Shown: piece after piece, positions 11,875-53,300 of the stretch | Layout of the letters: every line of letters begins with the position of its first letter | How positions within the stretch are numbered: position 1 is the first letter of the stretch | Assembly (NCBI GenBank): GCA_000004985.1 | Contig: GG738926.1 | Direction: 5' to 3' (one strand) | Source: Naegleria gruberi | Taxonomy: Eukaryota | Length of the DNA stretch: 64,000 bases | The notes under the pieces: generated by a model | What the model was told of the DNA's origin: nothing | What the model saw: the letters and a program-made list of their open reading frames with translations, nothing else | Databases searched by the model: none | Translations under genes and position numbers: made by a program

Positions 11875-13482
11875 TTATTGTGTTGATTTCTTCTTCTTTC
11901 TATTAAAACATGAACAGAATGGCCAATAGATAAATTCATAGACATCCAAAACTGATTTCATATTCAATAGATAGAGAGTAAGCAATAATAGGATCCATAT
12001 CAAAATGAGTTCTGATATGAATTCCAATGCCAAACTACCATCACCCATTGAAAAACTAGTTGACTCTGTGTTGAATTGAATATTCTCAACGGAAATCAAT
12101 ATGAGAAAGATGCACAAGACAATGAATGAAATTGTAATGAGCATTATAAATCTGGTAAATTTGAGAGATTTGAATGAATCAATCTTCTCCTGTGCATTCT
12201 TTGTTCTCGTCAAATCAAGGAATAATTTCATTCCAAATCCAAATATGGCCAAGCTCAAAACAATGAGGATTGTAATGAAGATGAGAAGAATGATACCAGT
12301 TCCCAACACTTCATTCAAACTAGAGGTGATAATATATGAAATTGCCACCGATAAGAAAAATCCCAATCCAACAAATAATAAAACTCTGAGTGGAATTAAG
12401 AGTTTTGGATCTGTGAGTTGTTTTCTCTTTTCACTGAATGCTAAATTGACCCACAGCAAGGTTACTACAAAGACACAAACAGTGATGAGGTAGTACACGA
12501 TGGCAATGATTAGTCTGGTTCTTTTAAAATCCTGAACTCCTAAAATTACTGCTCTAGCTATGGCATAGCCAATTATGGTGAGTGAAATCATAACTTTCAA
12601 AATTAAGGTAAAATGTTTTACAGAAAACCATGTAAATTCTGGATAAATATCAGAATCCTTTTCAATACCCATTGATCCCTCTTCACTGCCAGTCCACAAC
12701 GATCTAACATAGGTATTGAACTTGACAATTAAGTTTCTAATAACTTTGAATATTCTCAATTGAATAATAGAAGGAATAAGTGAAACTGTAATTGACACAA
12801 ATGCAACAATAAATGCCAAAATAACTACAATATAATGATAGGCATAAAAAGCTCGTTTCGAATGAATCAAATTACAATTAGTGGCCCACAAATTCTCCTC
12901 CTCGCAATAACACATAATAGTTGTGGTGTTTCCTCTATACGAATCTACAAAAGGACTACTTTTCGAATTGCCACACAATTGTGTTTGATCATAATCTGGA
13001 TTTTGAGCCATTATAATATCAATAGTTCTGTCCACTCCTCTACACTCTGAAACATTCCACATTTTCATTCGAAACTCATTACTCACCACATTACACAACA
13101 TGCAATATCTCTGAAAAACATAAGAAGGAAGGTCAAGACAAATTTCCTGACACGTTGTTTCGTTCCAATCGGGATGACCATTCCTTGCAGACTCACAAAA
13201 ATCATAAACTAAACTATCCATCACAACTTGTTGGTTATTTGGAAAGGGAACAATGTAGGAATCGGCTACAAGAATCTTGTTGAAACAAGGATAGGGAGTT
13301 GTGTTATTTTCACATGGCTCTTGGAAAATAAAGGGACTGTAATAGAGTGAATTATTATTGGCAGTTGAGTTGAGTGAAGTGTTGTAATAGAGTTGTTGTT
13401 CTTGTCCTAAACAATTATTAGAAACTGATGTGAATAAACAAAAAAGAAGGACAAGAAGAAGAATACCAAGGTTGTGAGACAT
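11875..13482 (-). CDS. 7TM receptor with N-terminal signal peptide and Cys-rich ectodomain (Frizzled/Smoothened-like, tentative), paralog A
   Basis: Signal peptide MSHNLGILLLVLLFCLFTSVS, about 190-aa ectodomain with at least 12 Cys (PCENNTTPYPCFNKI...), seven hydrophobic helices, short C tail. Strong paralogy to the next gene, including the identical NYCMLCNVVSNEFRMKMWNV block. Confidence 0.75.
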   Translation of the reverse strand: MSHNLGILLLVLLFCLFTSVSNNCLGQEQQLYYNTSLNSTANNNSLYYSPFIFQEPCENNTTPYPCFNKILVADSYIVPFPNNQQVVMDSLVYDFCESARNGHPDWNETTCQEICLDLPSYVFQRYCMLCNVVSNEFRMKMWNVSECRGVDRTIDIIMAQNPDYDQTQLCGNSKSSPFVDSYRGNTTTIMCYCEEENLWATNCNLIHSKRAFYAYHYIVVILAFIVAFVSITVSLIPSIIQLRIFKVIRNLIVKFNTYVRSLWTGSEEGSMGIEKDSDIYPEFTWFSVKHFTLILKVMISLTIIGYAIARAVILGVQDFKRTRLIIAIVYYLITVCVFVVTLLWVNLAFSEKRKQLTDPKLLIPLRVLLFVGLGFFLSVAISYIITSSLNEVLGTGIILLIFITILIVLSLAIFGFGMKLFLDLTRTKNAQEKIDSFKSLKFTRFIMLITISFIVLCIFLILISVENIQFNTESTSFSMGDGSLALEFISELILIWILLLLTLYLLNMKSVLDVYEFIYWPFCSCFNRKKKKSTQ

Positions 13483-14168: not shown

Positions 14169-15734
14169 TTAGTTACTCGCTACTTGTTGAGGTGTTTTCT
14201 TCTTTTTGAATAGACCTACAATAGGCCAATAGAGAAACTCATAGGTATCCATAGCAGAGTTATGATTATACAAGTAGAAAGTTATCAAAGTAAGCATCCA
14301 AATCATAACGAGTTCAATAACAAATTCTATTGCCAATCCCAAATCGCCTCGAATAAAATTCACACCAAAGTTTTCTAATGAAAATATTATCAATAGTACA
14401 CACAAAATGATAAATGACGTGGTAATGAGAACTATGAATCGTGTAAATTTCATTGAAACAAAGGAGTCAATGTTATCCTTTTTGACTCTTGTAACTTTGT
14501 AATAGAGAGTAAAACCTGCAATAATAATAGCCAATCCTAACACTATTAAAATAGACATGAAAACTAGCAAAATTGTTCCTGATCCAATATTCAATGCCAG
14601 TATTCTTGTAATGACATAAGCAGCTAAGACTAGAAACATGAAAATTAATCCCACAATATAAATCACTCTGAGAGGAATCAACAATTGATCTTCTGTTTTT
14701 TTCTTTAACTCTTTAACCATCAAATTAATCCATAAAATGCAAATTGTAAATGTACTAATTGTAATCAGGAAAAAGACTATTGCTAAAATTATTTTGTAAT
14801 TGCTGAAATCTTCCACTATGAATAAAGCTATTCTAGATGCAAAGTATCCAAAGGCAGTACATGGAATAAGTAGATTTAACATGAATATGAAATGCTTGAG
14901 AGAAAATGCTTGCTTGGGCAGGAAAATTTCAGAATCACTTAAAACCAATCTCTCGTCTCCCTTAAAGGCAACCCTAACTAAATTATTGAGTTTTTGATTT
15001 AAAACTCTCACCTTTTTGAATAGTCTCGACTGAATTAGGGTTGGCAAGAGAAGCACAGAAAAAGAGAACACAGAAATGAGGAATGATAGAATAATAATAA
15101 TGTAGTGATAGGAGAAATAAGCAAGCTTTGTGGAGAGGTAGCCACAATTGGATGCCCAATAATCCCCCTCCTCACAATAACAAATAGTAACTGTTTGTTG
15201 AATTAGATAGAGAAGTAAAAGAGAACTTTTCGAACTGCCACAAATTTGGGTTTGATCGTAATCTGATGATTTTGTCATGGCCATATCAATTCTTCGGTCA
15301 GGAGCTGGACACTCAGTAACATTCCACATCTTCATCCTAAATTCATTACTCACTACATTACACAACATGCAATAGTTTTGGAATGTTGGATTTGATGATT
15401 TAGTACAAAGCTCTGTGTAGCATTTTGTTGCATTCCAATTATTTCGTGTGGCATAATAGTGGCAAATATCAAATCCTCTTGGTCCAAACGAAACAAGTTT
15501 TTCATTTGGGAACAAAATAAAGCTTGAAAAGATGGTTATCTTGTTAAAACAAGGATAGGGTGTAGTGTTGTTTTCACACGGTTCCAAGAAAGCATTGGGA
15601 CTGTAGTAGAGAGGTTTGTTGTTTGCGGTTGTGTTGAGTGAAGTGTAATAGTAATAATTTTGTGATGATTGTACATTTGACATTAAAAGCAGTAAGAAGG
15701 CAACCACAACAATCATAACAAAGCAATTGAACAT
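14169..15734 (-). CDS. 7TM receptor with Cys-rich ectodomain, paralog B (tandem duplicate of 11875..13482)
   Basis: ORF 14169..15761 begins with a TTG in the track; the real ATG (MFNCFVMIVVVAFLLLL signal peptide) is at 15734. Same architecture and conserved blocks (EPCENNTTPYPCFNKI, NYCMLCNVVSNEFRMKMWNV) as paralog A. Confidence 0.75.
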   Translation of the reverse strand: MFNCFVMIVVVAFLLLLMSNVQSSQNYYYYTSLNTTANNKPLYYSPNAFLEPCENNTTPYPCFNKITIFSSFILFPNEKLVSFGPRGFDICHYYATRNNWNATKCYTELCTKSSNPTFQNYCMLCNVVSNEFRMKMWNVTECPAPDRRIDMAMTKSSDYDQTQICGSSKSSLLLLYLIQQTVTICYCEEGDYWASNCGYLSTKLAYFSYHYIIIILSFLISVFSFSVLLLPTLIQSRLFKKVRVLNQKLNNLVRVAFKGDERLVLSDSEIFLPKQAFSLKHFIFMLNLLIPCTAFGYFASRIALFIVEDFSNYKIILAIVFFLITISTFTICILWINLMVKELKKKTEDQLLIPLRVIYIVGLIFMFLVLAAYVITRILALNIGSGTILLVFMSILIVLGLAIIIAGFTLYYKVTRVKKDNIDSFVSMKFTRFIVLITTSFIILCVLLIIFSLENFGVNFIRGDLGLAIEFVIELVMIWMLTLITFYLYNHNSAMDTYEFLYWPIVGLFKKKKTPQQVASN

Positions 15735-15977
15735 GTTTTTTGATTTGTGAAAGCGTAACAATCATACACTCATATTATGAGCCCTTCTGTTGAAACGTTT
15801 TGCAGATCTACAAACAATTGTTTTGCCTTACCATAAATAGAAGGAACACTCAGAGATGTAACAGAGATGTAATATTACCTCTCTGAGAGGCATTTCCTTG
15901 AGTTCTTTAACAAGATGGGCTCTGATGAATATTAACCAAGTTGTCTGTTTTATCAATTACTGACTATCAATTGATAA

Positions 15978-17420: not shown

Positions 17421-18905
17421 CTATTCATCTTGTCTTATGCTAGCAATAGTCTTTTCAAATTCATCTTGCTCTCTTTGCTTTTTCTTTCTCATTTCGGTCT
17501 TGTACTTTCTTGCTCTGGATATATATTGTTCTCTACTGATTCTATCTGCTTGATGAGGGTTTGCAAAGATTCTGGCTATTGTCATTCCTGTTTGCAGTGG
17601 GATGTCTTTCATTAATTCATTACTCAACAGATTAATCTGTTTTGCATCATAGGTTACTCTTTCCTCTTGGCTCATAATCTTTTCCTTTTGTATTTTCTCT
17701 TCATTTAAAAAGTATGTCACTAAACCATCTCTAAGCTCAGCATCCCTGGCAGAAGAGATTTCCTCGTTTTGTTGAGATTGTGGTAAACTCTCTGCAGTTC
17801 CTCTGACTGTGTGTTGATCCTCTGGCAGTGATTTAAGGTATTCGTATTGTTCATAGCTCTTATTAAGATAGGATAAATCAACATTTCTTCTCCTTATTTC
17901 TCCTTTCAATCTTGCCATTTTCAATTTTTCCAAGTCAGGAAGAACTGGTTCAACGTAGTTCTTCCTTTCCTCCAGTGCATCTTTAACATACTCACTCGGT
18001 CTTAGCATATGTACGATATGTTTGTTATGAGAGTTGAGTGATGGATCAATGAATCTAAAGTCATTTTCTCTTCTTTCGTACGAGATGGATAACGTCTCCA
18101 GATCAATATTATTGTCTATATCATCAAATCCAAGTAATCTGAGAGTTGTCAAATACTCTCTTTTAATATGTGTCTCTCCTTGAGTTTTTCTCTTTGGAGC
18201 TCTTAAATAAAGTGGTCTCGTGTAAGGGTCATCAAAGTTGTTAGGTTCTGGTGAATGTGAATAAAGGAAATTTGTCCTCTGATTCAGAAAATGCTGATAG
18301 TCCTTGTCATTTTCGTCATCATCAAATGTAATGTACACTCTCTCGTTAAATTGAACTGATTTCCTTTCCTTTCCCCTGCTTTCGTCCGAGAGTGGTTCCT
18401 TAAGTATTGTTTTGTTACCTCTTTTTTGTTGTCCAAACTTTAGAGGAGAAAGTCTGTTCCCCCTTGAAGTTGGAGAATCAACAGAGTATTTGGAAGGTGA
18501 ATTATTAAATAAGGGACTTCTGGGATATTTTGGTGTAGCAACTTTTTTGAATACAGTCTTCTTTAGACCAGGATTCTTCTCGATGGTTATTGTTATGTTT
18601 TTCCTTGCATAAGGATTTCTATATACATATGTATCCTCATCCTTAGGAACATCAATTTTCAATTCCTTTGGAATTTTTGGTGGAGGTTGATGCTGCTCGG
18701 TAGAGGAATTTGTTGGATCAATGTTGACATTAAGAAACATCGACTTCCTTGGAGTCAATGTATCCCTTTTGGGTTCATCAAACATCCAATTTCTCTTCGT
18801 TGCTGTGCTGGAGTGGGCCAATCTCGGTGCAGTCTTTAAATCTGAATCTGCTGTTGAAGCCCTGGCCTGGCTTGTTTTTAAATATGGTCTTCTCTTACTG
18901 GTCAT
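17421..18905 (-). CDS. hypothetical basic low-complexity protein (494 aa)
   Basis: Complete ORF with real ATG, K/R/P/S-rich. No recognisable domain. Confidence 0.5.
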   Translation of the reverse strand: MTSKRRPYLKTSQARASTADSDLKTAPRLAHSSTATKRNWMFDEPKRDTLTPRKSMFLNVNIDPTNSSTEQHQPPPKIPKELKIDVPKDEDTYVYRNPYARKNITITIEKNPGLKKTVFKKVATPKYPRSPLFNNSPSKYSVDSPTSRGNRLSPLKFGQQKRGNKTILKEPLSDESRGKERKSVQFNERVYITFDDDENDKDYQHFLNQRTNFLYSHSPEPNNFDDPYTRPLYLRAPKRKTQGETHIKREYLTTLRLLGFDDIDNNIDLETLSISYERRENDFRFIDPSLNSHNKHIVHMLRPSEYVKDALEERKNYVEPVLPDLEKLKMARLKGEIRRRNVDLSYLNKSYEQYEYLKSLPEDQHTVRGTAESLPQSQQNEEISSARDAELRDGLVTYFLNEEKIQKEKIMSQEERVTYDAKQINLLSNELMKDIPLQTGMTIARIFANPHQADRISREQYISRARKYKTEMRKKKQREQDEFEKTIASIRQDE

Positions 18906-19148: not shown

Positions 19149-20168
19149 ATGAGAAATAGGAAAGAAAATATGTTGAAGAGCAATACAATAACAACAACTC
19201 TTAATAATTTTAATAATTCTAAGAATACAACAAGGGAAGAGGAAAACCTTCAATTCAATTTTCCAACTTTTCCGAAGGGATTTGATGAGTCACAGCTATC
19301 ACTCTATCATTCTCTTTTATTAAAACAATGTACAAAATGTGATCATAGAAACGAGCATGCTAACAATACAACTAGTAAACCAGAGATTCCAACAAGAAGC
19401 ACAATACAAAATGATTGTATTAAAACAATCCCTAGAGTTAACCCTTTATCGAGTGGAGTGAGTTTCCGATCACTACCAAAAGCAACCTGTGATGATATCA
19501 TCAAAGTGTGTAACTTTTACGTAGAGAAGTGTGAGGGAAAATACAGTGAAAAAACTAGAGCCTACAGAATGATGGTGGAAATGGCGAATGAAATTATTAA
19601 ATTAACAAACATTATACAAAGGGATTTCGAAGTGGAATATAGCAAACAACGAGAGCAGAATGTTCACTTGAATAAGGTTTGTGAGGAGTGGAATAATTAT
19701 TTTGGAAAAACAGTAGATGATAAATATTCAAAACTGAGCCCACGAGATATTCGATTAATAATTGATAAACTGGAAATGGATGTGAAGAAATATGAGGATA
19801 CATTGAATGAGGAGCGATTAAGACACTACGAACAAGAACGAAAATTACACTTGATGATCAATGAGCATCACGAGGCCAGCAGGAAGAGCATTAGAAACAT
19901 GATGAAACAAACATCAGCACCAACTTTTCAAAAGAGTCCAACACCTCTCTATCAACCAAATTTCGAACAGACCTCCCTCGTTGAAACTCTTCTAGAAGAA
20001 AACAGACAATTGAAAAAACAAGTTCAAGAACTGACAGGCAGTACCTCCAAATATCGAACAAGCCACCACAACATGACCTCATCCTCCACCCTTCAAGATT
20101 CAATCAGCAGTAATAGTAGCTCTTCCCAAAGTACCTCCTCCATCAAATACAACACCCTATTCCAATAA
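19149..20168 (+). CDS. hypothetical coiled-coil protein (339 aa)
   Basis: Complete ORF with real ATG and a predicted coiled-coil centre (EERLRHYEQERKLHLMINEHHEASRK...). Confidence 0.5.
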   Translation: MRNRKENMLKSNTITTTLNNFNNSKNTTREEENLQFNFPTFPKGFDESQLSLYHSLLLKQCTKCDHRNEHANNTTSKPEIPTRSTIQNDCIKTIPRVNPLSSGVSFRSLPKATCDDIIKVCNFYVEKCEGKYSEKTRAYRMMVEMANEIIKLTNIIQRDFEVEYSKQREQNVHLNKVCEEWNNYFGKTVDDKYSKLSPRDIRLIIDKLEMDVKKYEDTLNEERLRHYEQERKLHLMINEHHEASRKSIRNMMKQTSAPTFQKSPTPLYQPNFEQTSLVETLLEENRQLKKQVQELTGSTSKYRTSHHNMTSSSTLQDSISSNSSSSQSTSSIKYNTLFQ

Positions 20169-23839: not shown

Positions 23840-23913
23840 GCCGTCATAGCTCAGTTGGATAGAGCACAGGACTTCTAATCCTGGGGTCGTGGGTTCGAGC
23901 CCCATTGTCGGTA
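23840..23913 (+). tRNA. tRNA-Arg (anticodon UCU)
   Basis: Cloverleaf: acceptor GCCGTCA/TGTCGGT (one U-U mismatch at 5:68 and one G-U pair), D arm GCTC-AGTTGGATA-GAGC, anticodon stem CAGGA/TCCTG with loop CTTCTAA, T arm GTGGG-TTCGAGC-CCCAT, discriminator A. No intron. Confidence 0.85.
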
Positions 23914-24059: not shown

Positions 24060-26744
24060 TTATTCATCACTACTATAGCTACTATCACTAGTATCACTAT
24101 CAGATGAGTAGCTCGATTCCAATGTTTCTATTTTTCTAATAACTCTCTGAGCTTGAATTTTAACAGAGATAGGGAACTGATCTAGATGTCTCAGAATAAA
24201 TAAAACATTTGTAAAATCATGATCTTCAACATCCAGTGAATCGGTATCAAACAAGTATTCTACAAACTCAAAAATACAGCCAAAGATGAGAAATTGCTTT
24301 TCCTTTGGAACTGTAGCTTTGAAGGGATAGACTAAAAGGTTTGGCAGAAAGTCATATAGACTAATTGCAAAGCTACGATTTCTTGTTAATAATAATATAG
24401 CAATCAATACCTCCTCGAATAGGTCAATGTTTGATAATTTCATCAATGCCAAATGAGCAGTTTCAAAATGTTCATCAGTTACATGAGAGAGTAATTGCTC
24501 TCCTCCATTTTGTACAATTTCATTGAGAATGATTGAACTCAAAGCCGAAGCGGAAAGCTGTAAACTCTGAACAATACTTGGAAATGATGGGATAATGAGT
24601 GATAAATGGGTGAGCAGGGCTTCTGATGGAATGGATGCCTCAATAAGTTCGTTAAACAAGTAATCATAGAGAAAATCCTTCTTTTCTTCTGATTGAATTT
24701 CATTCACATCAAATGGACAATGAATCAATAATCCCTTCTCGTAAAGATTTTCAATTAGGACAGCTAATGATCCAATATCAGCTAGTGTATTGCTCATAGC
24801 AGTATCTACTTTCTTTTTTGAAATTACAATTCTAATGAACTTGGTAAGGAATGGATAAAAATCAAACTGTTCAAAAACTCTCGACAATGCGTTTAGATCT
24901 GTTTCTTTGATTATTTTGGCCATGGCTTTGGTGGTTGATAATATTAATTCGTCATTTAGCTTAAACTCATCTTTCTCAAATATTTCCTCAGTCTTTTTCT
25001 TAATAACCAAAAGAATCTTTTCAAATTTAATATTATCATTAATAAATCCAAATAATGTCTCAATCATGTCAAAGCATTCTATAACATTTTCTTTGTGTGT
25101 TTCTAATTTTTCTTCATCACTTAAATCTTGCATATCTTTCAAGTATTCGATTGTGTCGCTCATTATTATGGTTTCAAACAGATTGCTGATAAGCTGTCTA
25201 AATCTCTCCAACATTGAACCGTTCATATTATTGACATCAAAGCAGCAACTAACATTTTCCAGCATTTCACAATATTCCTTGATATTTGTGATATTGGCTT
25301 GGCCAGCATTGATTATTGTTCCCAGTAAATCATCAGAGCACTTCTCTTTTTCGAGGAAGTAACGGGCAATAGTCCTATTAGCAGAACTTCTGATGATTCT
25401 ATTGCTAGAGAATAAAGAATTTTTCCATATTTCTAAAATGCAAGAAATCATCTGTTTAAACTCTTCTGGTATTTCTTCCAACTTGTCCACATCAAGGCAT
25501 ACAGCAGGTAATGAAATGATATTAGCTGACTCTCTCAAAAGTCCTTCGTATTGTGTTTTAATTTCGTTTCTCTTCAAGTTTTCAATTATTAAATCTTTAA
25601 ATTGTAGAAGTACTGAAACACGTAAGAGAATATCATGCCTAATTATCAGTTCATCCTGGTCTTCGTACTCCTTTTCCATCAATACAAATCCAAGAGTGTT
25701 CATTATTTTGCCTTTAACAATGTACACATGATCTCCAAAGTTTTCAGATTGTTCGTTCGTAATATTCGAAGCTTCCATATCCTTAACTTCTTCGTAATCT
25801 TTCTTCATTAAGGAAAACAAATGACTCCACCTTGTGTCGTCAGTATTTGCTAGTTTTGCAAGAGTTAACATTTTCGTTGCATCTACTTTTAAATCCTCTG
25901 TATCATCCTCCAAGCTTAGCCCAGTAAGTTTATAAATTAATTCAATGTAAATTGGAATACAGTTTAAAATTTTTGATCTTAATTCATCCAATTCATCGAT
26001 TTCAATTGAAAAGATATCTTTAAGGAATGGAGGCCAAAACGAAATATTAGAACCCATTAAAGGTTGGTTCTCTTGTTTCCAATTTTGGTCATTGTTTTCC
26101 TTCAAATACTTGACCTTCTTTTCCTTCATATATTTCAACGTAGTCAGCATTACAAAACATGAATTGTAATATTTTTCCATATCCGAAATAGGTAAATATC
26201 GATAACTGAAAATGTCAACTTGTAATTTAGTATATAAATGTAAAACAATTTTCTGCCAAGCCTCCAAAATTCCAATTCCAGTTTCGAATTGTCTCACCTG
26301 TCCATTATATGCCTCCTTTTTCAATTTCTTGGCACAATCAAACACTTCCTTCAATACATTCTCTTCAACATAATAAAGAAATGGAACAAAAGCCTCTGAT
26401 CTAATTCTTGTCATTGTCTCACGTGAAACTATAAAGTAATGATAAATCATCAGCATGGTCTTGATACAAATTACATCTTCGTCATCATGATCCCGCTCAT
26501 CAAATACAAATAATTTAGAACCAGTATAATATGATAAATCATCATCAAAATCAAAATGACTTGACAATATTTTGTTAGTTTCTTTATGACGGTCTTTCCA
26601 GAAAATGGAAACTAGTGAATAATTAGTTCGGACAATCATCTTTACTTCATCAAAATTTCTACGTAAATCATTCAAAGAGTCAAGTTTTCTACATTCCGAC
26701 ATGTAGTCCTCTTGAATGAACGGAAAAATTCCATCTTTAATCAT
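24060..26744 (-). CDS. large helical hypothetical protein (894 aa)
   Basis: Complete ORF with real ATG in aaaaaaaaATG context. C-terminal acidic Ser/Asp tail. No recognisable catalytic motif. Confidence 0.55.
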   Translation of the reverse strand: MIKDGIFPFIQEDYMSECRKLDSLNDLRRNFDEVKMIVRTNYSLVSIFWKDRHKETNKILSSHFDFDDDLSYYTGSKLFVFDERDHDDEDVICIKTMLMIYHYFIVSRETMTRIRSEAFVPFLYYVEENVLKEVFDCAKKLKKEAYNGQVRQFETGIGILEAWQKIVLHLYTKLQVDIFSYRYLPISDMEKYYNSCFVMLTTLKYMKEKKVKYLKENNDQNWKQENQPLMGSNISFWPPFLKDIFSIEIDELDELRSKILNCIPIYIELIYKLTGLSLEDDTEDLKVDATKMLTLAKLANTDDTRWSHLFSLMKKDYEEVKDMEASNITNEQSENFGDHVYIVKGKIMNTLGFVLMEKEYEDQDELIIRHDILLRVSVLLQFKDLIIENLKRNEIKTQYEGLLRESANIISLPAVCLDVDKLEEIPEEFKQMISCILEIWKNSLFSSNRIIRSSANRTIARYFLEKEKCSDDLLGTIINAGQANITNIKEYCEMLENVSCCFDVNNMNGSMLERFRQLISNLFETIIMSDTIEYLKDMQDLSDEEKLETHKENVIECFDMIETLFGFINDNIKFEKILLVIKKKTEEIFEKDEFKLNDELILSTTKAMAKIIKETDLNALSRVFEQFDFYPFLTKFIRIVISKKKVDTAMSNTLADIGSLAVLIENLYEKGLLIHCPFDVNEIQSEEKKDFLYDYLFNELIEASIPSEALLTHLSLIIPSFPSIVQSLQLSASALSSIILNEIVQNGGEQLLSHVTDEHFETAHLALMKLSNIDLFEEVLIAILLLTRNRSFAISLYDFLPNLLVYPFKATVPKEKQFLIFGCIFEFVEYLFDTDSLDVEDHDFTNVLFILRHLDQFPISVKIQAQRVIRKIETLESSYSSDSDTSDSSYSSDE

Positions 26745-41176: not shown

Positions 41177-44011
41177 TTAGATGGATTGGGTGTGAGATTT
41201 ACCATGCTTTGACATTAATTGAGCAATTAAGGAGACTCTTTTTGGGATACTGTAACTCCAAAATTCTTTTATACCTTCCAATAGCCTCTCTCGTTCATAA
41301 TTATCTTGACAATAATCCCAAATGAAAACTAGATAGAATTTGAGTTTTGAGAACCTCTTATCGATGTTATCGACAAATGATTTCTTTAGAAGGTTCTTTG
41401 TGAGACCTTCTGAATTTTCCACTTGTTTGCATTCCATGAATAATTCTATTGATTCTTCACATAATGTTCCAAAGTATTCTAATGATTCATTAAATAATTT
41501 TATGCCATCTACGCAAATTGTGTGTTGGGCACTGATATTTTGCTTGTCATATTTGAAGAATTCTGAAAGTTCCTTTCCCCAGTTCTCGTTAATTCTCAAC
41601 AAATCGAAACAGAATCTCTTGTTGGAATTGGCATTATTGGTGTGAAAATTGATATTCACAATCTCAGTTAAACTTAAAATTTGAGGACTAATCATTTGGA
41701 ATAGTTTGAATGAAGTATTGTACTGATCAGTGACAACTAAACCTTCACATTGTAGAGGATGTAAGTGCCTTCTTAGCATGGTTCTCAAATTATCTTCTAA
41801 TTCTCTTACGTCCAATACGAAAGTTTCCTGTCTATTTCCAAATAGTTCATTGAATTTTTCGTTGAGCACATTTGGTGTTGGAATATTAATGTCCTTGGAA
41901 ATTGCAAAGATATTTTCTGACTTGATACTGTTACCTGAATTCATGAAGGAATAACTTCCGTGAAGAAAGAGTTTAGTCTGATCGTATTGTACAGGTTGAA
42001 ACTTTAAACTCTTCAATAATTTTTCTTGTTCACTTCTTGTTTGGTTGTGGCTTACAATGCACAACTCGAAAACATAACATTGATTCTCTTTGAAATCTAT
42101 TTTTCCATTTTGTTTTTCTAAAGTTTTCCAAAAAAGGTCAGTAATAAATTTTTGCTCCATCTCTTCCTCATCACCAATGCCTCCAATTGATTGAGAAGTT
42201 TCACTGAATAGAGAGTCAATTCTCTTGTAGACCCCCAAGTTCCAGTTCAAATCTTTGGTGAAACGTTGCTTTTTTTGAACATCTGGACTGAATACCATCC
42301 AATCCATCTTTCCTGTGCCTTCATTCATGTAAGAAAAGACTATTATGGCTATTCCATTCAATTTCTCCATAATTAATGTACCTTTAGAGAAATCCAAGTC
42401 TGTGCTTCCTACAATCAAATCGTTGTCAAGGCCGTCATCAATAAACAAATTGAACATTGGTCTGTGATTTAGTGCTACAATTTCATACTGGTCATTTTCC
42501 AATTTCTTCAAGACAATACTCTCAAAGTATTGGCAAACATTGATCTCATTATTCATGGCCTTTGATACTTGGGTTGGATCATTCTTGGCAATTAAATACT
42601 CTTCCGTTGTGGTATATTGTACCCAGATTGGTGAGTGCTGTTTGTCAGCAACACAAAATACAAGCTCTGTACTTCCGTTTTTGTAATGATGAAGAGAAAA
42701 TGAAAAATCTCTCTTGAGAGCTTCAATGCCTTTCTTCTCAATATATTTCAAAACTTGTGAGAAATCTCTGGTTGGAGTTTCAACTTGAGAGTACTTGTCA
42801 TAATTGGAATGAATGTGAACCTTCTTTTTGCTTCTGTTTCCTCTGATAGATTTTGAACTGCTTACATTTTTTCTAACCACCAATTTATCGCTTGAGTCAT
42901 TATTCTCAGAGTAGAGGTTAGAATTAATGTATGTAAAGTGGAAAAGATAGTGCATTTCTTCACTTATTCTATCCTTGTAGTGGACTTCCAATATTTCATA
43001 CGTCTTGCTTCTCAATAGGTTCTTTTCAAAATTGGTTTCAATCAAGAGCTTTAATCTTGAAAGCATATCCAAGTAAACCTTGTTTTCTGAAATTTCAATC
43101 TCACTGTTGACTATTTCTAATAATTTCTCTGTAGATTCGTCAGCCATCTCCTCAATTTTTTTTACAATGGTACTGAATGGTTTCAATATAAACTCCCACT
43201 CTTCATTAGCAAATGAAAAGTTAATCAAGAGTTTGTCTACCTTTGTTTTTCCTTCAATAATATCTATAATTTCAGAGTTTGATCTTTCGTGTAAATCAAG
43301 CATGTCTCTTGACAGGCCCAAAAATCTAGCTGCATGAAGGAGATTCTTTGCTCCTTTTCTAAAATCACCATCGTTATTCCACAATCTTTTAGATTTTGCT
43401 ACGTGGTGTGAAATATCAGTGAGTGTGGCACTCTTAAACTTGACCAAATTGAATCCACCAATACCATCCATCTCATCCTTATTGTCTGAATAGTTGTCGT
43501 GCAATCTCAATGGATAGTAGAATTTCCTTACCAAGTCCACCTCTTCTTTCCATACATATTCACCTCTGTCACTGAATGGCATTTTCAAATAACACAACAT
43601 AATCACCCAAATATATTGTTCCTTCAACAAGTTTAGAAAATAATCCATATGATATATATTCACATTGATATTCTCAATACTATCATCTTTACATTTCAAA
43701 TCTCCCTCTATCAACATTGATCCATCAAAATAATACTTTTCCGATTTAATAATCATGATAAAATCATAATCAGAGGTAGAATCCTGACAATCACACGTTC
43801 TATACAACTTTGATCCGAACAAGTACAAATTCAAAATATCTTCTCTCTGTATCGTGAATATTGTATTACGAGTAGTAATCATCACGGAATCCACCAACTT
43901 GCTCTGCAAAATACCATCATTCAGAGTTTGTACCTGTGCAGTCGCATAGGCTGGATTATGTTGATTCTCCAAAACAAAGTTCATCACATCCGTAAGATTA
44001 AATTTAGTCAT
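41177..44011 (-). CDS. large protein (944 aa) with N-terminal Pol-beta-superfamily nucleotidyltransferase motif, family unassigned
   Basis: LYLFGSKLYRTCDCQDSTSDYDFIMII matches hG[GS]x9-13[S]DhDhhh of minimal NTases/TUTases/OAS-cGAS. The downstream 800 aa have no recognisable motifs. Confidence 0.6.
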   Translation of the reverse strand: MTKFNLTDVMNFVLENQHNPAYATAQVQTLNDGILQSKLVDSVMITTRNTIFTIQREDILNLYLFGSKLYRTCDCQDSTSDYDFIMIIKSEKYYFDGSMLIEGDLKCKDDSIENINVNIYHMDYFLNLLKEQYIWVIMLCYLKMPFSDRGEYVWKEEVDLVRKFYYPLRLHDNYSDNKDEMDGIGGFNLVKFKSATLTDISHHVAKSKRLWNNDGDFRKGAKNLLHAARFLGLSRDMLDLHERSNSEIIDIIEGKTKVDKLLINFSFANEEWEFILKPFSTIVKKIEEMADESTEKLLEIVNSEIEISENKVYLDMLSRLKLLIETNFEKNLLRSKTYEILEVHYKDRISEEMHYLFHFTYINSNLYSENNDSSDKLVVRKNVSSSKSIRGNRSKKKVHIHSNYDKYSQVETPTRDFSQVLKYIEKKGIEALKRDFSFSLHHYKNGSTELVFCVADKQHSPIWVQYTTTEEYLIAKNDPTQVSKAMNNEINVCQYFESIVLKKLENDQYEIVALNHRPMFNLFIDDGLDNDLIVGSTDLDFSKGTLIMEKLNGIAIIVFSYMNEGTGKMDWMVFSPDVQKKQRFTKDLNWNLGVYKRIDSLFSETSQSIGGIGDEEEMEQKFITDLFWKTLEKQNGKIDFKENQCYVFELCIVSHNQTRSEQEKLLKSLKFQPVQYDQTKLFLHGSYSFMNSGNSIKSENIFAISKDINIPTPNVLNEKFNELFGNRQETFVLDVRELEDNLRTMLRRHLHPLQCEGLVVTDQYNTSFKLFQMISPQILSLTEIVNINFHTNNANSNKRFCFDLLRINENWGKELSEFFKYDKQNISAQHTICVDGIKLFNESLEYFGTLCEESIELFMECKQVENSEGLTKNLLKKSFVDNIDKRFSKLKFYLVFIWDYCQDNYERERLLEGIKEFWSYSIPKRVSLIAQLMSKHGKSHTQSI

Positions 44012-44188: not shown

Positions 44189-45904
44189 ATGACTCAACAT
44201 GATACGGTAAAAGTTTTGCTGATTGATTTTTTAGATCAGCGAATAGAAACTCAACAATTTCTCCGATGCAAATTCCAACAGCAACAATTAGGAAGAATGA
44301 AATATTTGAAAAGAAGAGAGGAAAATTTGAGGAATTGTAAAGATTGGTTTCCCATTGAATTTGCAAAAGATAAATATTTTGTCATCAACCAAAAGTCCAT
44401 TGCAAGGGCAAAGATCTTTCGTCTACTTTCGGATGAATTAAAGAATGATAACGATGTTATTATTAGCTGCTACTCATATTTCGTTCATTTCAGTGATTAT
44501 TACAATGTTTTGATGAATTTATTGAAATCTAAAGAATTAGCTGAAGAATTTTTGAAACGAAACAAAGTTAGCAATTTTAATTTTGATCCACAAACGTGGA
44601 AAAATACAGAACTTTGTAAAATGTATTTAAGAAATTTGAAATATCCCAGGTCGAATGTTAGGCAATTTGATGATGAATTTATAGTGGAAGCTTCATGGTT
44701 CAATGTTTCTTATTTTAGACATGGATCAGTAGAATTGAGACGAAATAGAGAGGTGGTGCTGAAACTTTGTAAACATAACGGAATGGTGATTCAATATGTT
44801 AATGCAAAATTGAGATTTGATAGAGAAATAATATTGGAAACTCTGAAAAATTGTCCTTCAGCCATTGAGTTTATTCCAAATGAATTGAAATTCGAAAGAG
44901 ATTTAATTAATCAAGTATTTATTCATCACTATAGTGATGAGATCAACCTTGAGGATTTATCAGATGATATTGTATGGTTACGGACCTATTTGAAACTCTT
45001 TGGAATTAATAATATTCCAAGAACATGGTCAAGGAAATATTCGAATAACAAAGAGCTCATGATGGAATATATCAAAGAGAATGGAGATTATTTGAAATTC
45101 GTCTCTATGGAACTGAAAAATGATAAGGAATTAGTTTTGCAAGCTGTGAAAAATTCAGGCCTTGCCATTTACTATGCCTCTGAAGAATTGAAGCGAGATA
45201 GGGAAATAGTTTTGGAGGCAGTTAAGCAGGATGGTACTGCTTACAATTATGTGGCTCCTCATTTCTCTTCTGATAAGGAAATTATCTCATTGGCTCTTTG
45301 CAGAGATTCGAATTTTTTCAATCTTGCATCTGAAAGTTTGAAAAATGATTATGAATTTGTGATGGATATAGTATCAACAAGAGGAATGATATTGAAATTT
45401 CTACCAGAAACACTAATGAATAACAGGACAATTAATTTGGCAGCTATTTTAAATAATGGAAGAGTTATTGAATTTTCTCCTTTCAAACATGATCCAGAAA
45501 TATTGAATCAGGTGGTTAAAGTAGTTCCTTATTATTACTTGAGATTTGTAGATTTATCAATGTTTTCGGATGAAACCTTGATTGAGGCAGTAAGATTTTC
45601 TGAAGATCCTTTTTTAATCACCAAAAGAGCTAACTATTTGGATTTGCTACAACGATCTATTGAATACAATGTGCGTTTGGCATCTTCATTTCCATATGAA
45701 CATTTGACTGAACAACTGGTGTTGAAATTCATTAGAATGGATGGTTCTGTAATCGAATATCATAATATTAAGCGATTCATTCATTCAGACAAATCAAAAT
45801 ATTTCATCGAAGCTGTCAAATCAAATGGATTCTTCACTGAATTCGATCAGGAATTGTATCGACTGAGATTGAGTGAAGAATATCACGGAGCTATCATGCA
45901 CTAA
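44189..45904 (+). CDS. DUF4116-like repeat protein (571 aa)
   Basis: Tandem units of about 38 aa of the form ELKNDKELVLQAVKNSGLAIYYASEELKRDREIVLEAVKQDGTAYNYVAPHF. Confidence 0.55.
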   Translation: MTQHDTVKVLLIDFLDQRIETQQFLRCKFQQQQLGRMKYLKRREENLRNCKDWFPIEFAKDKYFVINQKSIARAKIFRLLSDELKNDNDVIISCYSYFVHFSDYYNVLMNLLKSKELAEEFLKRNKVSNFNFDPQTWKNTELCKMYLRNLKYPRSNVRQFDDEFIVEASWFNVSYFRHGSVELRRNREVVLKLCKHNGMVIQYVNAKLRFDREIILETLKNCPSAIEFIPNELKFERDLINQVFIHHYSDEINLEDLSDDIVWLRTYLKLFGINNIPRTWSRKYSNNKELMMEYIKENGDYLKFVSMELKNDKELVLQAVKNSGLAIYYASEELKRDREIVLEAVKQDGTAYNYVAPHFSSDKEIISLALCRDSNFFNLASESLKNDYEFVMDIVSTRGMILKFLPETLMNNRTINLAAILNNGRVIEFSPFKHDPEILNQVVKVVPYYYLRFVDLSMFSDETLIEAVRFSEDPFLITKRANYLDLLQRSIEYNVRLASSFPYEHLTEQLVLKFIRMDGSVIEYHNIKRFIHSDKSKYFIEAVKSNGFFTEFDQELYRLRLSEEYHGAIMH

Positions 45905-47768: not shown

Positions 47769-48170
47769 ATATAATTTGACAACATTTGTAAATAAATAAT
47801 TAGGGAACTCAATTAACAAAAAATTTGATCTTTTCAAAGAGAGCTTATAAACAATTAAGCAAATATACAGGAGAGAATACAGAAAATCAGAGATAAGACT
47901 TTCTAGACCACCATTACACTTATTAGGATGAATACATCCAAACTGGGTACTCCTGTTGCCATTTCTCAATTTTCTCCAACATCAGCTCGAGCAAGCTCAG
48001 TAGTGCGACCAGTTTTGGTGCACCTTATTGCTATTTCGCCACAATTACGAATCAGCAAAAAAAGAGCTACTCTCAAACACACAACATTCACCCAACACAA
48101 AATTGTTTTATTGATGAATCATCTAGTTAAACTATTAAGCAGAATAATCACACCTTAGTAAATATTAAGT

Positions 48171-50167
48171 ATGTCCGTTAAGAAGATAGTGCCTGTGAAT
48201 TCGGGCCAACAACAACATGTCGATACATCTTCATCATTTGCCGTTACGAGTCATAAAGTTCTCAGTCGTTTATCAAATATTAAGGCCTCCGAAGAACCTC
48301 TCACATCGGATGGTGGCAATAATTTTCACACAGGACGAGGATTCTGCGTAGACTCACTCTGTTCACTCAAGACAATGCTCATCTCATTTCTGGTGATCTC
48401 TCTCTTTATAACATGCCTCATCATTTGGATCATTTTAATGATTTTGTCTTCACAACAAGTTGAAATTTCAATGGGAATTGCCTCAATAGTCGTGTGGTGC
48501 ACATTCGTCGTATCTTTGATAGTATTTTCCATTCTGACATCTCTGGGAGTGTCCACTCTGATAAGGAAACCCATCACGGAATTAACTCGACAACTCTTTC
48601 GCATGAAAACATTAAGGTTTGACTCTGTGAAAAAGCTCAAATCCATTTTGTATGAATTCATTCCACTATTCACTGTGTTTTTCGATTTGAATAATTTAAT
48701 GAAGGATATTAGACCTTTCATTCCCGAATCCATCACTCGGCAGTCGGATGATGATGAAGCTGAACTTGAGGAACAACAAAGGGAAGAAGAACGAAAACAA
48801 TTACACATGATGCAATTGAGAAAATCCATCTTTTCTGCATCATCTGCTGGAATACCAACTCCTTCCATTGCTAATTCATCAGCAGCAAACAATGGTGGAG
48901 GTGGAGGATTGGCCATTCCACCCTCCATTCAACCTCCTCCAGCTGTGGCCACAATGACCATCAATGGACTTCCTCCTCCAAATCCAAATGTATCCGGCAC
49001 AGGATCTTCATCACCATCAATCCAATGCTTACAGTTTCCTCTGTGAACAAATTAAGAAAGGCAGTGAGTAAGGTAGGAGTTGTGGTTGCACTCTCAAAGT
49101 CAAGAAAATCCTTTGCTTTGGAAGGGACACATGCTGTAAATCATCATGATTCTGTTAGTGATCATGGTAGTGTAAATAATTCAGTAGGTGCAGCAGCTGT
49201 TAAGGACGCTAATGCAGAGAGAACAGTTGGATTTTCACCTCAGCTGTCGAACAATTTAGGCCTAGGACTAACCTCACACATTACAACAATAATTATCATT
49301 CAATTTAGAAATTTTGATGGTAAATCGTATCCGAATACTGCTGATTTGCTTGCTGTATTTACATTACTCTTCCAAAAGGTTCAAAGTGCCAGCAGACAAT
49401 ATAAAGGAAGATGTTCGATTATTACACCAAAAGTTCTAATGGTTAGTTTTGATGTTGGAATGAATGTTGAAAGAAATGCTCTACTCTGTGCACTGCAGTT
49501 GGATAAACAAATGCAATCAGTCAATTCACAACTTGAAGAACAAGTCAACTTGCCAAAAATTGAGTATGGCATTGGAGTTTCTCGATCAGAATGTCTCGTA
49601 GGTAATGTTGGTACTTCAGCAGTGAGATTTGCAGCATTAATTGGTGCATGCTCGAGTAATGCATTGAGATTGGCTGCATTGTGTGCCTATTTTGGAACCT
49701 CAATTTTAACAGATGAATCCTTGGCATTGCCATTACAAACAGGATTCATCACAAGAGCTGTGCATTTCATGCAGAAGAAATCAATATTTGATAGTGAGAA
49801 ATTGAGTTTGGATGATGGAGGCGATGATCGTCAAGTGATTTATCAATTACTTGCTGAGAATCGTGTAAATGATGACGAATGGCTCTATGAATTGGAACAA
49901 CAGGAAAATAACAACAAATATAGAGAATTCGATCAGGCATTTGGGTTGTTGAGAGGAGATGTAAATATTGAACTGCTAGGTGAGATTTGTGAAGTGTTTG
50001 GAACCTATTCCACAAAGAATCCTCAAGATAAGGTTGTTTCCTTACTGTATACTCAATTGTCTGATTATTTAAAGCTAGATACGAAAGAAGTGGAAAGTGC
50101 TGTGAGGTCGTTTAGCTTGGAAAAGACTGATATTCCACTCCATACAGATCCATCATTTATTCTGTAA
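48171..50167 (+). CDS. membrane-anchored class III nucleotidyl-cyclase-homology protein, encoded by two overlapping ORFs (48171..49046 and 49025..50167), joined by an undetermined intron or frameshift
   Basis: ORF1 has 2 TM helices, an acidic coiled segment and a Pro/Gly linker. ORF2 has a cyclase-homology core: KIEYGIGVSRSECLVGNVGTSAVRFAALIGACSSNALRLAALCAYFGTSIL (compare RIGIHSG.V.AGVVG....RY.LFGD.VN.ASRMES) with the catalytic Asn and Arg retained. The metal-binding Asp positions look substituted (FRNFDGKS). Confidence 0.55.
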
Positions 50168-50392
50168 ACATGTTTGTCAGGATGAATGGAAGAGATGGAC
50201 AGAGAGGATTTAAGATATTTAACGAAATTTGTGGATTCGCTTATGGCTGACATTAAATCCTGCATATTTGAAAGATTACAATGGATCAATAGAGAATTGG
50301 AAAATAATGAGGAATCTGATATTATAAGGTCTTTTTTTAATAGTGATAGCTGAACTGTCAATCAGTCGACTTACATAATAATAAATTACAGT

Positions 50393-53300
50393 TTATTTGT
50401 TTTGTTGGTCATTGAGTTTAAATCCTAATTCCTGAGCGAGGGCTCCTGCATTGGTTCTCAAACTTCTTCGCTTCTTGTAAGCACTTCCATCTCTCAGTGA
50501 ATTCTCCAAACCTTCCAATACACCCTTTTCATTTGGCTTGAGACCAATACTGTTGGCATTGAGTTGCACAGATTTCTTTCTCATAGCTTCCTCTTCCTTC
50601 TTCTTTCTCTCTTGAATATATTTACGAGCTGACTTGAACATTTCAAAGAATTCGTCAAGTTTAGTGAAGAAATCTTCTGGCTTGTTGGTAACCATGGTCT
50701 TGTCTTCATCGAACAAGATGGCAATTTCTTCCAATCCTTCCAATGTCTTTTTCAATTTCTCTTCAAGCATGGCCAAATCAGTCTTGGTTTGTTCGTAGAA
50801 TGGTTTCATCTTTTCAATGAATTGATCTTGTTTGTTGATTTGATCAGCTTCATGTCTTTCCTTTTCCAAAGCTTCTAAAACATTTCCAAGAGCATTGGAT
50901 GAAGATCTGATATTTTGTAAACTTTCCTTAATTTGAGAAATTGAGGCCTTCTTGGCAGATGGAACATTTGGCAAATCATCGTAGAACATAGACAAATCCT
51001 TTTGGTTATTGTCAATGTATTCGACAAGGTAGTGCAACAAGGAGAAGCCATCACTGGACTTGGATTTGGTATCCTTCATCTTGTGAAGAGATGAAAGATG
51101 GAAACCATATTGATCCTTTTGTCTACCCTTTGCATTCAAATAGTTGGCAATTGACAAGACAACAGCAAGGAACTTGACAAACTTTTTAGATTCCTTGAGT
51201 TCAATAGTTGCCAATCTCAAACATTCAATATCTGGTTTCAAAGTGGACAAATCATCTTCATATCTCAACTTGAAGGTCCAAGCGTCCATTCTTTCCTTAA
51301 CTTTGGAAACATCCTTAACCTTGTAGAAGAAACAATCTGGATCTGACAATTGGGAAATGGAGCCTTCAAATGAAGCATAGGCATCACATTCTTCCTTTGT
51401 TGGAACAATGCTCTTCAGAATATTGATTTGATTCTTGTTGAGAACCTTTTCATCGAGTGCAATAATTCCTTGTTTGATAGTATCAACTGGCAAACGCATA
51501 GAAGCCAATTGAATACCAATATTGTAAGATCTCTTAGCATCGATGAATGATATTTTTTCATTGCTTTGCTTGTCACTTTGTTGAGATGGCTTATTGTGTT
51601 GATCCTTTTCGATGGTGAACAATTCTTCAATACGCTTTTCATCCAATTGAATTTGTTTGAGTCTTTCAATAACTCCCTTCTTGATAAAGATGGTATCCTT
51701 AACAACTCTCTTATTGATTGGATCAATATGAACATTTCTCAAATTGGCACTAGGATTGTAAGTTGGAAGTGCTGGAAGTGCTGGTTGAGCAACACCACCA
51801 AGCATACCAGGTGGAGGAGGCATCATTCCAGAACCAGGTGGAGGTGGGACGCCAACACCAGGAGGCATTGGAATACCTGTGCCTGGAGGAGGTGGAACAC
51901 CAACACCAGGAGGTGGAGGAGGAACCATTGTTCCTGGTGGAGGAGGAACTGATCCAGTTCCAATTGGTGGAGGAGGAACCATTACAGAAGGCACAACAAT
52001 AGCTTGTTCAACTGGTTGTTCAATAGTTGTTTCGACTGGTTTACCTGGAATGGTTGGAAGTGGCTTTCCTGTTGGAACAGGAAGTGATGGTGAGGAGGAT
52101 GATCCAGAAACAGTTTTAGTTGTTACTGATGTTACAATATCTTTCAACAATTCAAAATCATTTACATCAATAGAACCACCTTCATTGAGGGCTTTTGCGA
52201 GTTTTTCCTTTTCTGCCTTCAATTTTTGTTCCATATTTGTGAATTGAGTTTGTTGAGTTTTGACTTGTTGCTTTAAACGTTCAGTTTCTTCTCCCCAATT
52301 TCTGAGACGACCTTTCTGATCGACAGAATCAACAATTTGTTGAACTAATCCAGCCAAAACATGCCAATTTTCTTCTTGAATTGTATTATCAACACAAATA
52401 GAAGCACGTGAAACAATGGATGTACGGGTATCTTCATAGGATTGAGCAATTGAAAGGAATGAATTCAACATTTTTGTAAAGTACTTTTGAGAAATTTCAG
52501 ATAATTGTCCTAAAATAATTTCTGTCAATTCTGATGGATTTGAATCTACAATGGTCTTGAATTGTTCGAATCTATTCACATTTTCTTGATTAATTTCATC
52601 TTTGAAAGTGTTAATTTGAATTTGCAAATCAGGATCCGCAGAATCGATAGTATCCAAAACTCTTTCCAAATCCAAATTGATAAATTCTTGTTGAATCCTT
52701 GATCTCATCTTTGGATCGTCAGGAGTTGTCATTAAAGTGTTAATGAACATTAAAGCATTGACACGAAATTCAGTGCAAGCTCTTCCATGTCCTCCACCAG
52801 TGTACATAATTCCAGTGGCTGTAGTTCCACTTGCATAACTATTTTCACTCAAAATCCATTCAGCCAAATTTTGGAATCTCTTCTTTTCTCTCTTGACGAG
52901 TTTGTAATGATTCATAGCATCGAGAATGAGTTCAAATGCATCTTGTCCACTGTGATGACACAAGAGAGCAAGTAATAACAAGATGGTTGATCTGTTTTTA
53001 AGTGAAGATCCATCTAATACAAGTACCATAGTTCTGTTTTTAACAAATTTGTATGATAATTAAGTTTCATTTCAATTAAATGTAAAATTATATGAAAATT
53101 ATAAAACTTTCCATTAATATTTTCAGAAACTTACCTAATTGAATCTCTTTGACTCAAAAATGATTTAATACCAGCATCCACATTGAGCAAACTTGTAAAA
53201 CTCATTAAAATACTTGTACGTAATTGTTCAACATTATTCAAACTAGTTTGATGAACACCATTTCCACCATTATCAGTCGATGTAGAATAATTTCCAAACA

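Follow-up and report, generated by a model that had tools for sequence, protein, structure and literature searches.

The locus and its protein

We analysed a 64,000-nucleotide stretch of Naegleria gruberi DNA (contig GG738926.1 of assembly GCA_000004985.1; hereafter the window, numbered from its first letter) and, within it, a single gene on the minus strand at 41177..44011. The gene is an open reading frame (ORF) of 944 codons that runs uninterrupted from its ATG to its stop. An original prediction, made from the sequence alone, had noted this ORF together with a GS...SDxD nucleotidyltransferase (NTase) motif near the N-terminus of its product. Both are real: the reading frame is intact, and the product is identical to a public-database protein of N. 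gruberi (EFC36747.1 / XP_002669491.1 / D2W2H4) that is labelled only 'predicted protein'. The motif string quoted in that prediction, LYLFGSKLYRTCDCQDSTSDYDFIMII, corresponds to residues 62-88 (window 43748-43828). The ORFs adjoining the gene are likewise exact N. gruberi entries, and no paper in the literature searched cites the accession numbers of the protein.

Direct scans of the 944-residue sequence against Pfam, NCBIfam and the sequences of the Protein Data Bank (PDB) gave no significant match; the sole direct library match was to the phage family phrog_388 and covered only the N-terminal domain. This is why about 800 residues had been left unassigned. In that gap, profile and fold methods place the helical domain of an RlaP-type enzyme, then a basic linker, then a complete ligase module of the Rnl1/Trl1 type with its own helical C-terminal domain. 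The earlier statement that no partner domain was evident therefore holds for the direct scans and fails for profiles and folds. The domain layout is listed below; the AlphaFold model that it draws on was built on a 41-sequence alignment (mean predicted local distance difference test score, pLDDT, 78; predicted template modelling score, pTM, 0.80), and P0002 is a full-length homologue from a second Naegleria-like source.

41177..44011, minus strand: complete ORF, 944 residues and stop (XP_002669491.1 / NAEGRDRAFT_54185)
43862..44011, minus strand: residues 1-50, N-terminal extension, poorly conserved and predicted to be disordered (pLDDT <50; 10% identity and 38 gaps against P0002)
43517..43861, minus strand: residues 51-165, Pol-beta NTase core, from profile and alignment matches
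43811-43816, minus strand: G66-S67, in the NTase core
43763-43771, minus strand: D81-x-D83, in the NTase core
43649-43666, minus strand: N116-V-N118-I-Y-H121 strand of the NTase core, in place of a third carboxylate
43448..43516, minus strand: residues 166-188, Naegleria-specific insertion within the NTase domain, low model confidence
42932..43447, minus strand: residues 189-360, RlaP/KNTase-type helical domain, from alignment and model
42767..42931, minus strand: residues 361-415, disordered Ser/Lys/Arg-rich linker containing KNVSSSKSIRGNRSKKKVHI, kept in both Naegleria-type proteins
42377..42766, minus strand: residues 416-545, N-terminal sub-domain of the ligase module, probably of the Rnl1 type, with G428, L432, R434 and D456 conserved
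41642..42376, minus strand: residues 546-790, covalent-nucleotidyltransferase (ligase) core, from fold match, profile and motifs
42353-42373, minus strand: ligase motif I, IMEK550LNG
42062-42076, minus strand: ligase motif III, YVFE649L
41957-41971, minus strand: ligase motif IIIa, LFLH684G
41726-41746, minus strand: ligase motif IV, E756-G757-LVVTD
41687-41713, minus strand: ligase motif V, degenerate, SFK769LFQ772MI774S
41180..41641, minus strand: residues 791-944, all-helical C-terminal domain after the ligase core, family-specific

Gene calls of homologues begin at the equivalent of M10 or lack the stretch of residues 1-50 altogether. The basic linker may serve as a nuclear localisation signal or as an RNA-binding tether. 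Compared with a 99% identical metagenomic allele, the N. gruberi gene differs at 16 synonymous and 10 non-synonymous codons, and it is under purifying selection.

The nucleotidyltransferase module

Residues 47-165 match phrog_388 with an E-value of 4.5e-5. The same family contains phage T4 NrdC.11 (2.2e-135), which in turn scores 46.6 bits against the Pfam RlaP family (PF10127) and is called RlaP in the Carruthers/Fatma/Huang preprint. A profile of 20 N-domain sequences aligned with NrdC.11 in hhalign at a probability of 92.6% (E 4.6e-7). Among 38 relatives, Pfam matches were to Polbeta in 30, to NTP_transf_2 in 21 and to RlaP in eight; MTPAP-like_central also appeared, below its cut-off. The gathering cut-off of Pfam RlaP is 23 bits. 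The N. gruberi protein itself gave no match to this family at E<=10 and its best relatives stayed under the cut-off, two of them with matches of 21.6 and 20.9 bits that span profile positions ~20-160 of 249. Viral homologues that stand alone exceed it in two cases (27.0 and 25.5 bits), and the N-domain profile matched one of these at 99.6% (E 2.7e-24 over 186 columns). The family profile also matched solved minimal NTases (E 3e-4), while weak matches to Tailor, TUT4 and GLD-2 (E 0.13-0.7) were confined to the GS...DxD segment.

The module shows the sequence pattern of the Pol-beta superfamily, an hG[GS] turn followed by a [DE]h[DE]h strand (LFG66S67 ... SD81YD83F), and is modelled with the superfamily's alpha/beta fold. 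The motif lies in a confidently folded block (pLDDT 81-91), not in a disordered region. As in RlaP, a helical domain forms a cleft with the NTase core: helices at residues 189-358 are modelled at pLDDT 80-95, and both the relatives' RlaP matches and the hhalign alignment run on through this domain. It carries two motifs, H202-x3-K206-x-K208-RLW, which is conserved, and K222-N223-x2-H226-x2-R229, which is invariant; together they probably line a cleft that binds nucleoside triphosphate or RNA.

Because none of G66, S67, D81 and D83 varies among 20 relatives, because phrog_388 and the minimal NTases are matched at the E-values given above, and because the region is folded, the motif is no chance match. 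The profile matches to phrog_388 and NrdC.11, to RlaP and to the viral homologues point to a Pol-beta fold with RlaP as the nearest family. On this sequence evidence we assign residues ~51-360 as a divergent RlaP-type Pol-beta NTase of the T4 NrdC.11 family. The NTase-family reading of the original prediction is thus upheld as far as the superfamily goes, whereas the relatives it proposed are not the nearest ones: no PAP-associated (PF03828), Mab21 or OAS domain was found, nor any fold match of the TUTase/Cid1 or OAS/cGAS/Mab21 kind, and a role in making nucleotide second messengers gained no specific support.

All 20 aligned relatives share nine residues of the module without exception: G66, S67, D81, D83, H121, K222, N223, H226 and R229. 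N118, H202, K206 and K208 are almost invariant, and E102 is only semi-conserved. In the alignment with NrdC.11, the strand IDHEL lies opposite INVNI, so that the D/E positions of RlaP correspond to N116 and N118, beside the invariant H121. The candidate for the third acid in the original prediction, D123 in HMDYF, is at a position that varies across the family (D/E/R/V/Q/K/N/A).

Two stand-alone viral RlaP-type NTases, at positions 4950-5582 of a 482-kb IMG/VR contig (L009) and 911-1507 of a second contig (L010), carry the same Asn-for-Asp pattern (LNIHIH). The neighbours of the former are NAD-salvage-like genes (a NAMPT-like 597-residue ORF, a Nudix-like ORF and others), with no adjoining RNA ligase.

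The ligase module

The C-terminal part of the AlphaFold model matched the ligase domain of fungal Trl1 (Trl1-LIG) in Foldseek (E ~1e-6, probability 1.0). The N. gruberi sequence gave no match to Pfam RNA_lig_T4_1 (PF09511), whose curated cut-off is 28.3 bits; its relative P0020 passes with 36.1 bits and P0004 scores 23.3 bits. A profile of the C-domain matched P0053, a canonical stand-alone PF09511 ligase (phrog_562 at 7e-33), at 99.8% (E 2.4e-30) and P0054 at 96.4%. Other comparisons gave less. A PDB sequence-profile search with the ligase alignment returned only a non-significant match to Rnl3 (E 0.36), P0020 and NrdC.11 as queries against the PDB yielded nothing useful, and when the ligase profile was set against T4 Rnl1 as a single sequence in hhalign, all motifs fell in collinear order without the match reaching significance (probability 3.4%), so that this alignment serves only as a residue guide. 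The helical domain at 791-944 does not match Pfam T4_Rnl1_C.

We audited the ligase motifs by anchoring them to a hidden Markov model, with T4 Rnl1, P0053 and P0054 as references. Motif I, EK550LNG553, aligns with K99EDG of T4 Rnl1 and with canonical PF09511 members, and the nucleophile lysine is present. Besides K550, the module retains E649 of motif III, H684 of motif IIIa and E756-G757 of motif IV. The KxK of motif V, which contacts the ATP alpha phosphate, is lacking; only K769, in a lineage-specific insertion of three residues, sits near it, and P0003 and P0004 retain only the first lysine. From the motifs and the modelled fold, we assign residues ~416-940 to a ligase module of the Rnl1/Trl1 lineage, an ATP-dependent class, with its own helical C-domain.

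Relatives and their distribution

A word-indexed search found only the 99% identical metagenomic allele and the 50% identical P0002. An exhaustive HMMER scan brought up 39 proteins among 1.84 billion representatives. A profile search of a 5.8-billion-protein index with a 21-sequence full-length alignment recovered only the two Naegleria-type proteins, and P0020 as query contributed only P0052-P0054. About eleven relatives, of 614-933 residues, have both domains; they come from Balamuthia mandrillaris, Arcella intermedia, Soliformovum irregulare and eukaryotic metagenome contigs. The identity between the N. gruberi protein and P0002 extends over the whole length, at 36-65% in each domain.

Across this family the ligase site ranges from intact (P0020, P0052) through partly intact (P0003, P0004) to damaged (P0021, Balamuthia KAL6062794.1) and clearly dead. 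In the damaged and dead two-domain proteins the lysine of motif I, the glutamates of motifs III/IV or both are replaced (KYHGG, QVGGG, KRLDG and DLLDG are examples), and the NTase motifs of those proteins stay invariant. From these alignments, the ligase module looks to have been converted repeatedly into a pseudo-enzyme.

We rejected the idea that the relatives are viral or contaminants, as the contigs of P0003 and P0004 encode ordinary eukaryotic genes. A defence-system origin was also rejected: PADLOC gave no match for the N. gruberi protein and only generic minimal-NTase matches for its relatives. P0004 (L006:7717-9609) had been called without its NTase N-terminus, but the lost part (..SDYDLIVVVGG..LNVNVYH) lies directly upstream at L006:7558-7716; judging from the sequence, the loss is a gene-call artefact due to an apparent short intron exactly between NVNVYH and MDYF. 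In N. fowleri the counterpart is present only as separate gene models of 233 residues (P0015; FDP41_007037 / 006722) and 349 residues (P0033; FDP41_007032 / 006725). The two lie a few genes apart and are found on each of two contigs, and long T/N/S-rich low-complexity runs interrupt P0033. Introns or mis-annotation may account for the split of the N. fowleri orthologue, or it may be decaying.

Comparison with known systems

The NTase module resembles RlaP and NrdC.11 in its Pol-beta core with hGS and DxD, in the cleft-forming helical domain that follows and in a homology that profiles can detect. A further likeness is the physical association with an RNA ligase, from which RlaP takes its name and which here takes the form of a fusion, a single ORF encoding both the NTase and the ligase module of the Rnl1/Trl1 type. 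Such an association was already known from bacterial and phage gene neighbourhoods; in phage T4, NrdC.11, Rnl1 and Pnkp are separate genes, and in many bacteria, too, the two kinds of module have a gene each. The Naegleria protein differs in falling under the Pfam cut-off, in having Asn for the third conserved Asp and in its family-specific motifs (H-N-x-A-K-A-K-R-L-W and K-N-x2-H-x2-R). Its gene is eukaryotic and cellular, and its ligase is covalently fused instead of being an operon neighbour, so that the types represented by NrdC.11 and Rnl1 in T4 are joined in one chain.

With T4 Rnl1 and fungal Trl1-LIG (Rnl6), the ligase module shares motif I in its Trl1 form (KxNG), the motif III Glu and the motif IV EG; H684 corresponds to His241 of Trl1, and, as in these enzymes, the core is followed by a helical C-domain. 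Unlike them, it has a degenerate motif V (Q772/I774), apparently lacks equivalents of T4 R54 and K75, falls under the PF09511 cut-off, has neither a T4_Rnl1_C match nor a kinase or CPD healing domain, and carries an NTase at its N-terminus. N. gruberi is unusually rich in RNA ligases, with the largest eukaryotic catalogue known: 15 were listed in 2015, including seven Rnl1 paralogues (Unciuleac & Shuman 2015, PMC4408790), and EFC36747.1 is absent from that list. The characterised N. gruberi ligase NgrRnl (Rnl5) is a nick-sealing enzyme of a separate clade with an N-terminal OB-like domain, in contrast to the Rnl1/Trl1 type with an NTase described here.

Kanamycin nucleotidyltransferase ANT(4'), the JCSG NTase-like structure 3c18 and Hailong HalB resemble the Naegleria NTase at the level of fold only (9-16% identity), and the aminoglycoside or dATP-oligomer substrates of ANT(4') and HalB are not implied for it.

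A different kind of likeness emerged when the model was compared with viral models in Foldseek. Two Klosneuvirinae-type proteins matched near full length over 941-975 columns: a Yasminevirus 'Endonuclease V' of 1081 residues (A0A5K0U7I7, E 2e-16) and a Terrestrivirus 'putative exonuclease' of 794 residues (A0A3G4ZN96, E 1e-15). Unlike the Naegleria protein, both have an apparent extra nuclease domain, and the comparison is between predicted structures only, with a low global template modelling score (0.20-0.23). Further matches were to a separate Klosneuvirus NTase and to Hokovirus/Mimivirus RNA ligases. Scans of viral sequences found stand-alone NTases only. The predicted structures suggest that viruses of amoebae encode nuclease, NTase and ligase polyproteins with the same NTase-plus-ligase arrangement, and hint at an amoeba-virus connection.

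A possible RNA-end repair enzyme

The explanation that we favour, with moderate confidence, is that the protein is a one-polypeptide RNA-end repair enzyme in which an RlaP-like NTase is fused to an Rnl1/Trl1-like ligase. Its observed basis is that both modules are recognisable by homology and fold and are fused, that some catalytic residues are kept and others lost, that the gene is under purifying selection, and how its relatives are spread over the taxa. We infer the rest: that RNA is the substrate, how the reactions are ordered and whether each module is catalytically active. Pseudomonas RlaP adds one or two nucleoside monophosphates to RNA 3'-OH ends, with a preference for a mimic of broken tRNA, and its products suit ATP-dependent RNA ligases that act on 5'-phosphate ends (PMC12776372). 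By analogy, the Naegleria NTase would extend a broken RNA, such as a cleaved and trimmed tRNA, at its 3'-OH by one or two untemplated nucleotides. The ligase module would bind the broken RNA and possibly seal its 3'-OH and 5'-PO4 ends by way of a Lys550-AMP intermediate; the 3'-OH product of the NTase would be the very substrate that an Rnl1/Trl1-class ligase requires.

Several observations weigh against this explanation. RlaP is reported to have three strictly conserved aspartates (PMC12776372), of which the Naegleria protein has two, D81 and D83; the third is Asn (N116/N118) throughout the family and in the viral stand-alone homologues. In the ligase module, T4 Rnl1 R54, K75, K240 and K242 are replaced by E497, P518, Q772 and I774; at these positions Trl1 has R99, K120, K323 and K325, which contact the gamma and alpha phosphates of ATP. 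The ligase is clearly dead in P0012, P0016, P0017 (Arcella), P0018 and P0039, and partly so in P0021 (Balamuthia), where the lysine of motif I, the glutamates of motifs III/IV or both have gone; because several relatives have lost catalytic residues in this way, what the family conserves is not ligation. The protein has no kinase or phosphatase domain for end healing. Finally, outside the phrog_388 match, family membership is drawn from profiles, relatives and predicted structure.

We weigh the two activities separately. Since relatives with a dead ligase module also keep GS and DxD without exception, the NTase is, with good confidence, active, and would use an altered Asn/His metal site. Sealing by the N. 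gruberi ligase is possible but somewhat doubtful, as the nucleophile and the metal-binding residues are retained and the four phosphate-contact residues are lost. If it does not seal, the ligase module would otherwise be a domain that recognises RNA ends or broken tRNA.

Alternative explanations

The main rival, which we consider somewhat unlikely, is an RNA 3'-end NTase without sealing activity, in which a pseudo-ligase recognises broken RNA, 5'-phosphate ends or a break in the tRNA anticodon loop and delivers it to the NTase. It would account for the contrast between the nine NTase residues invariant in 20 of 20 relatives and the repeated loss of catalytic residues from the ligase, and the four replaced basic residues of N. 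gruberi fit it too. But N. gruberi, P0002, P0003 and P0004 all retain the nucleophile Lys, G553, the motif III Glu, the motif IIIa His and the motif IV Glu-Gly, and K769 could stand in for the motif V lysine. As these four proteins keep the ligase residues despite 25-50% overall identity, there appears to be selection on nucleotide chemistry. The converse, an RNA ligase whose NTase-like module is inactive for want of a third metal-binding carboxylate and acts as a nucleotide- or RNA-binding accessory domain, is very unlikely. The three conserved aspartates reported for RlaP and the presence of N116/N118 where T4 NrdC.11 has D/E speak for such a domain. Asn and His are, however, able to bind Mn2+ or Mg2+; the invariant GS, DxD and His121 and the conserved basic motifs in every relative, those with dead ligases included, are hard to explain without catalysis; and the viral stand-alone homologues with the same Asn pattern are independent genes.

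Between these two in probability, and distinctly unlikely in our judgement, is a single-chain RNA repair machine common to amoebae and giant viruses with a non-canonical division of labour, combining the Asn/His metal site with a ligase that lacks ATP-phosphate contacts. The adenylyl group might come from the NTase, which would either make AppRNA or load Lys550; or the ligase module might be a break sensor that licenses nucleotide addition. If this were true, the repeated death of the ligase site would mark a path from repair enzyme to RNA-end-modifying effector in the conflict between virus and host.

A generic Pol-beta fold and the weak profile matches to Tailor, TUT4 and GLD-2 are also what one would see in a signalling or tailing NTase, be it a second-messenger synthase like cGAS, OAS or the CD-NTases, an oligonucleotide synthase like HalB or an RNA tailer of the Cid1/TUTase type. 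We regard this as highly improbable: the Pfam scan found no Mab21, OAS or PAP-associated domain, the fold matches include no cGAS, OAS or CD-NTase structure, the sequence relatives are RlaP and NrdC.11, and no PADLOC defence model matched. Because the fusion partner is an RNA ligase, work on RNA ends is the more natural role. That the ORF is decaying or mis-annotated and has no function is scarcely credible. The catalytic motifs of both modules are partly degenerate and the N. fowleri counterpart is present only in fragments, but the 944-codon frame is intact, the predicted fold is confident, and both the identity to P0002 in all domains and the 16:10 ratio of synonymous to non-synonymous differences from the allele argue for a working gene.

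Genomic surroundings

The gene lies among ordinary eukaryotic genes, which encode glutaminyl-tRNA synthetase (GlnRS), a formin, a homeobox protein, BCS1, a DUF4116 protein, an inositol trisphosphate (IP3)-receptor-like protein, a RabGAP, a DnaJ protein and a BTB protein. The DUF4116 gene (window 44189-45904, plus strand) is divergent from the RlaP-ligase gene, the two start codons being only 177 bp apart, and its product of 571 residues has at least six DUF4116 repeats (Pfam E 2.7e-85). An intronless ORF of 2777 residues at 2332-10665 (plus strand) contains Ins145_P3_rec, MIR, RIH and RIH_assoc domains and represents an IP3-receptor / ryanodine-receptor-like channel in Naegleria. A tRNA-Arg(TCT) gene lies at 23840-23913.

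G+C content rises locally at 48000-52000, to 0.38-0.39 against ~0.33 elsewhere. The ORFs at 48171-49046 and 49025-50167 (plus strand; 291 and 380 residues) are consecutive and overlap slightly, and neither matches Pfam; a frameshift or an intron may have divided a single gene into these two. Six further ORFs of 325-894 residues (10684-11661, 11875-13482, 14169-15761, 17421-18905, 19149-20168 and 24060-26744) have no Pfam match at E<=1e-4.

Implications

No description of a fusion between an RlaP-type NTase and an Rnl1/Trl1-type ligase was found in the literature searched, a search that did not take in the 2016 paper defining RlaP. As read from the sequence, the novel features of the protein are the eukaryotic fusion of an RlaP-like NTase to an Rnl1/Trl1-like ligase, the Asn-substituted NTase site and the partly eroded ATP site of the ligase. 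It would be a further ligase-type protein beyond the 15 listed for N. gruberi. The practical stakes are modest, namely a gain in annotation and a testable lead in enzymology, with no new principle.

Until now, the partnership between RlaP and RNA ligases has been founded on bacterial and phage gene neighbourhoods and on the recent in vitro work with Pseudomonas RlaP. Their natural fusion provides strong, independent evidence that both activities act on the same RNA molecule, and a single chain is convenient for testing whether restoration of the 3' end is coupled to sealing. The series from intact to dead ligases beside an invariant NTase, together with likely giant-virus counterparts, would help in tracing how conflicts between amoebae and their viruses turn repair enzymes to new purposes.

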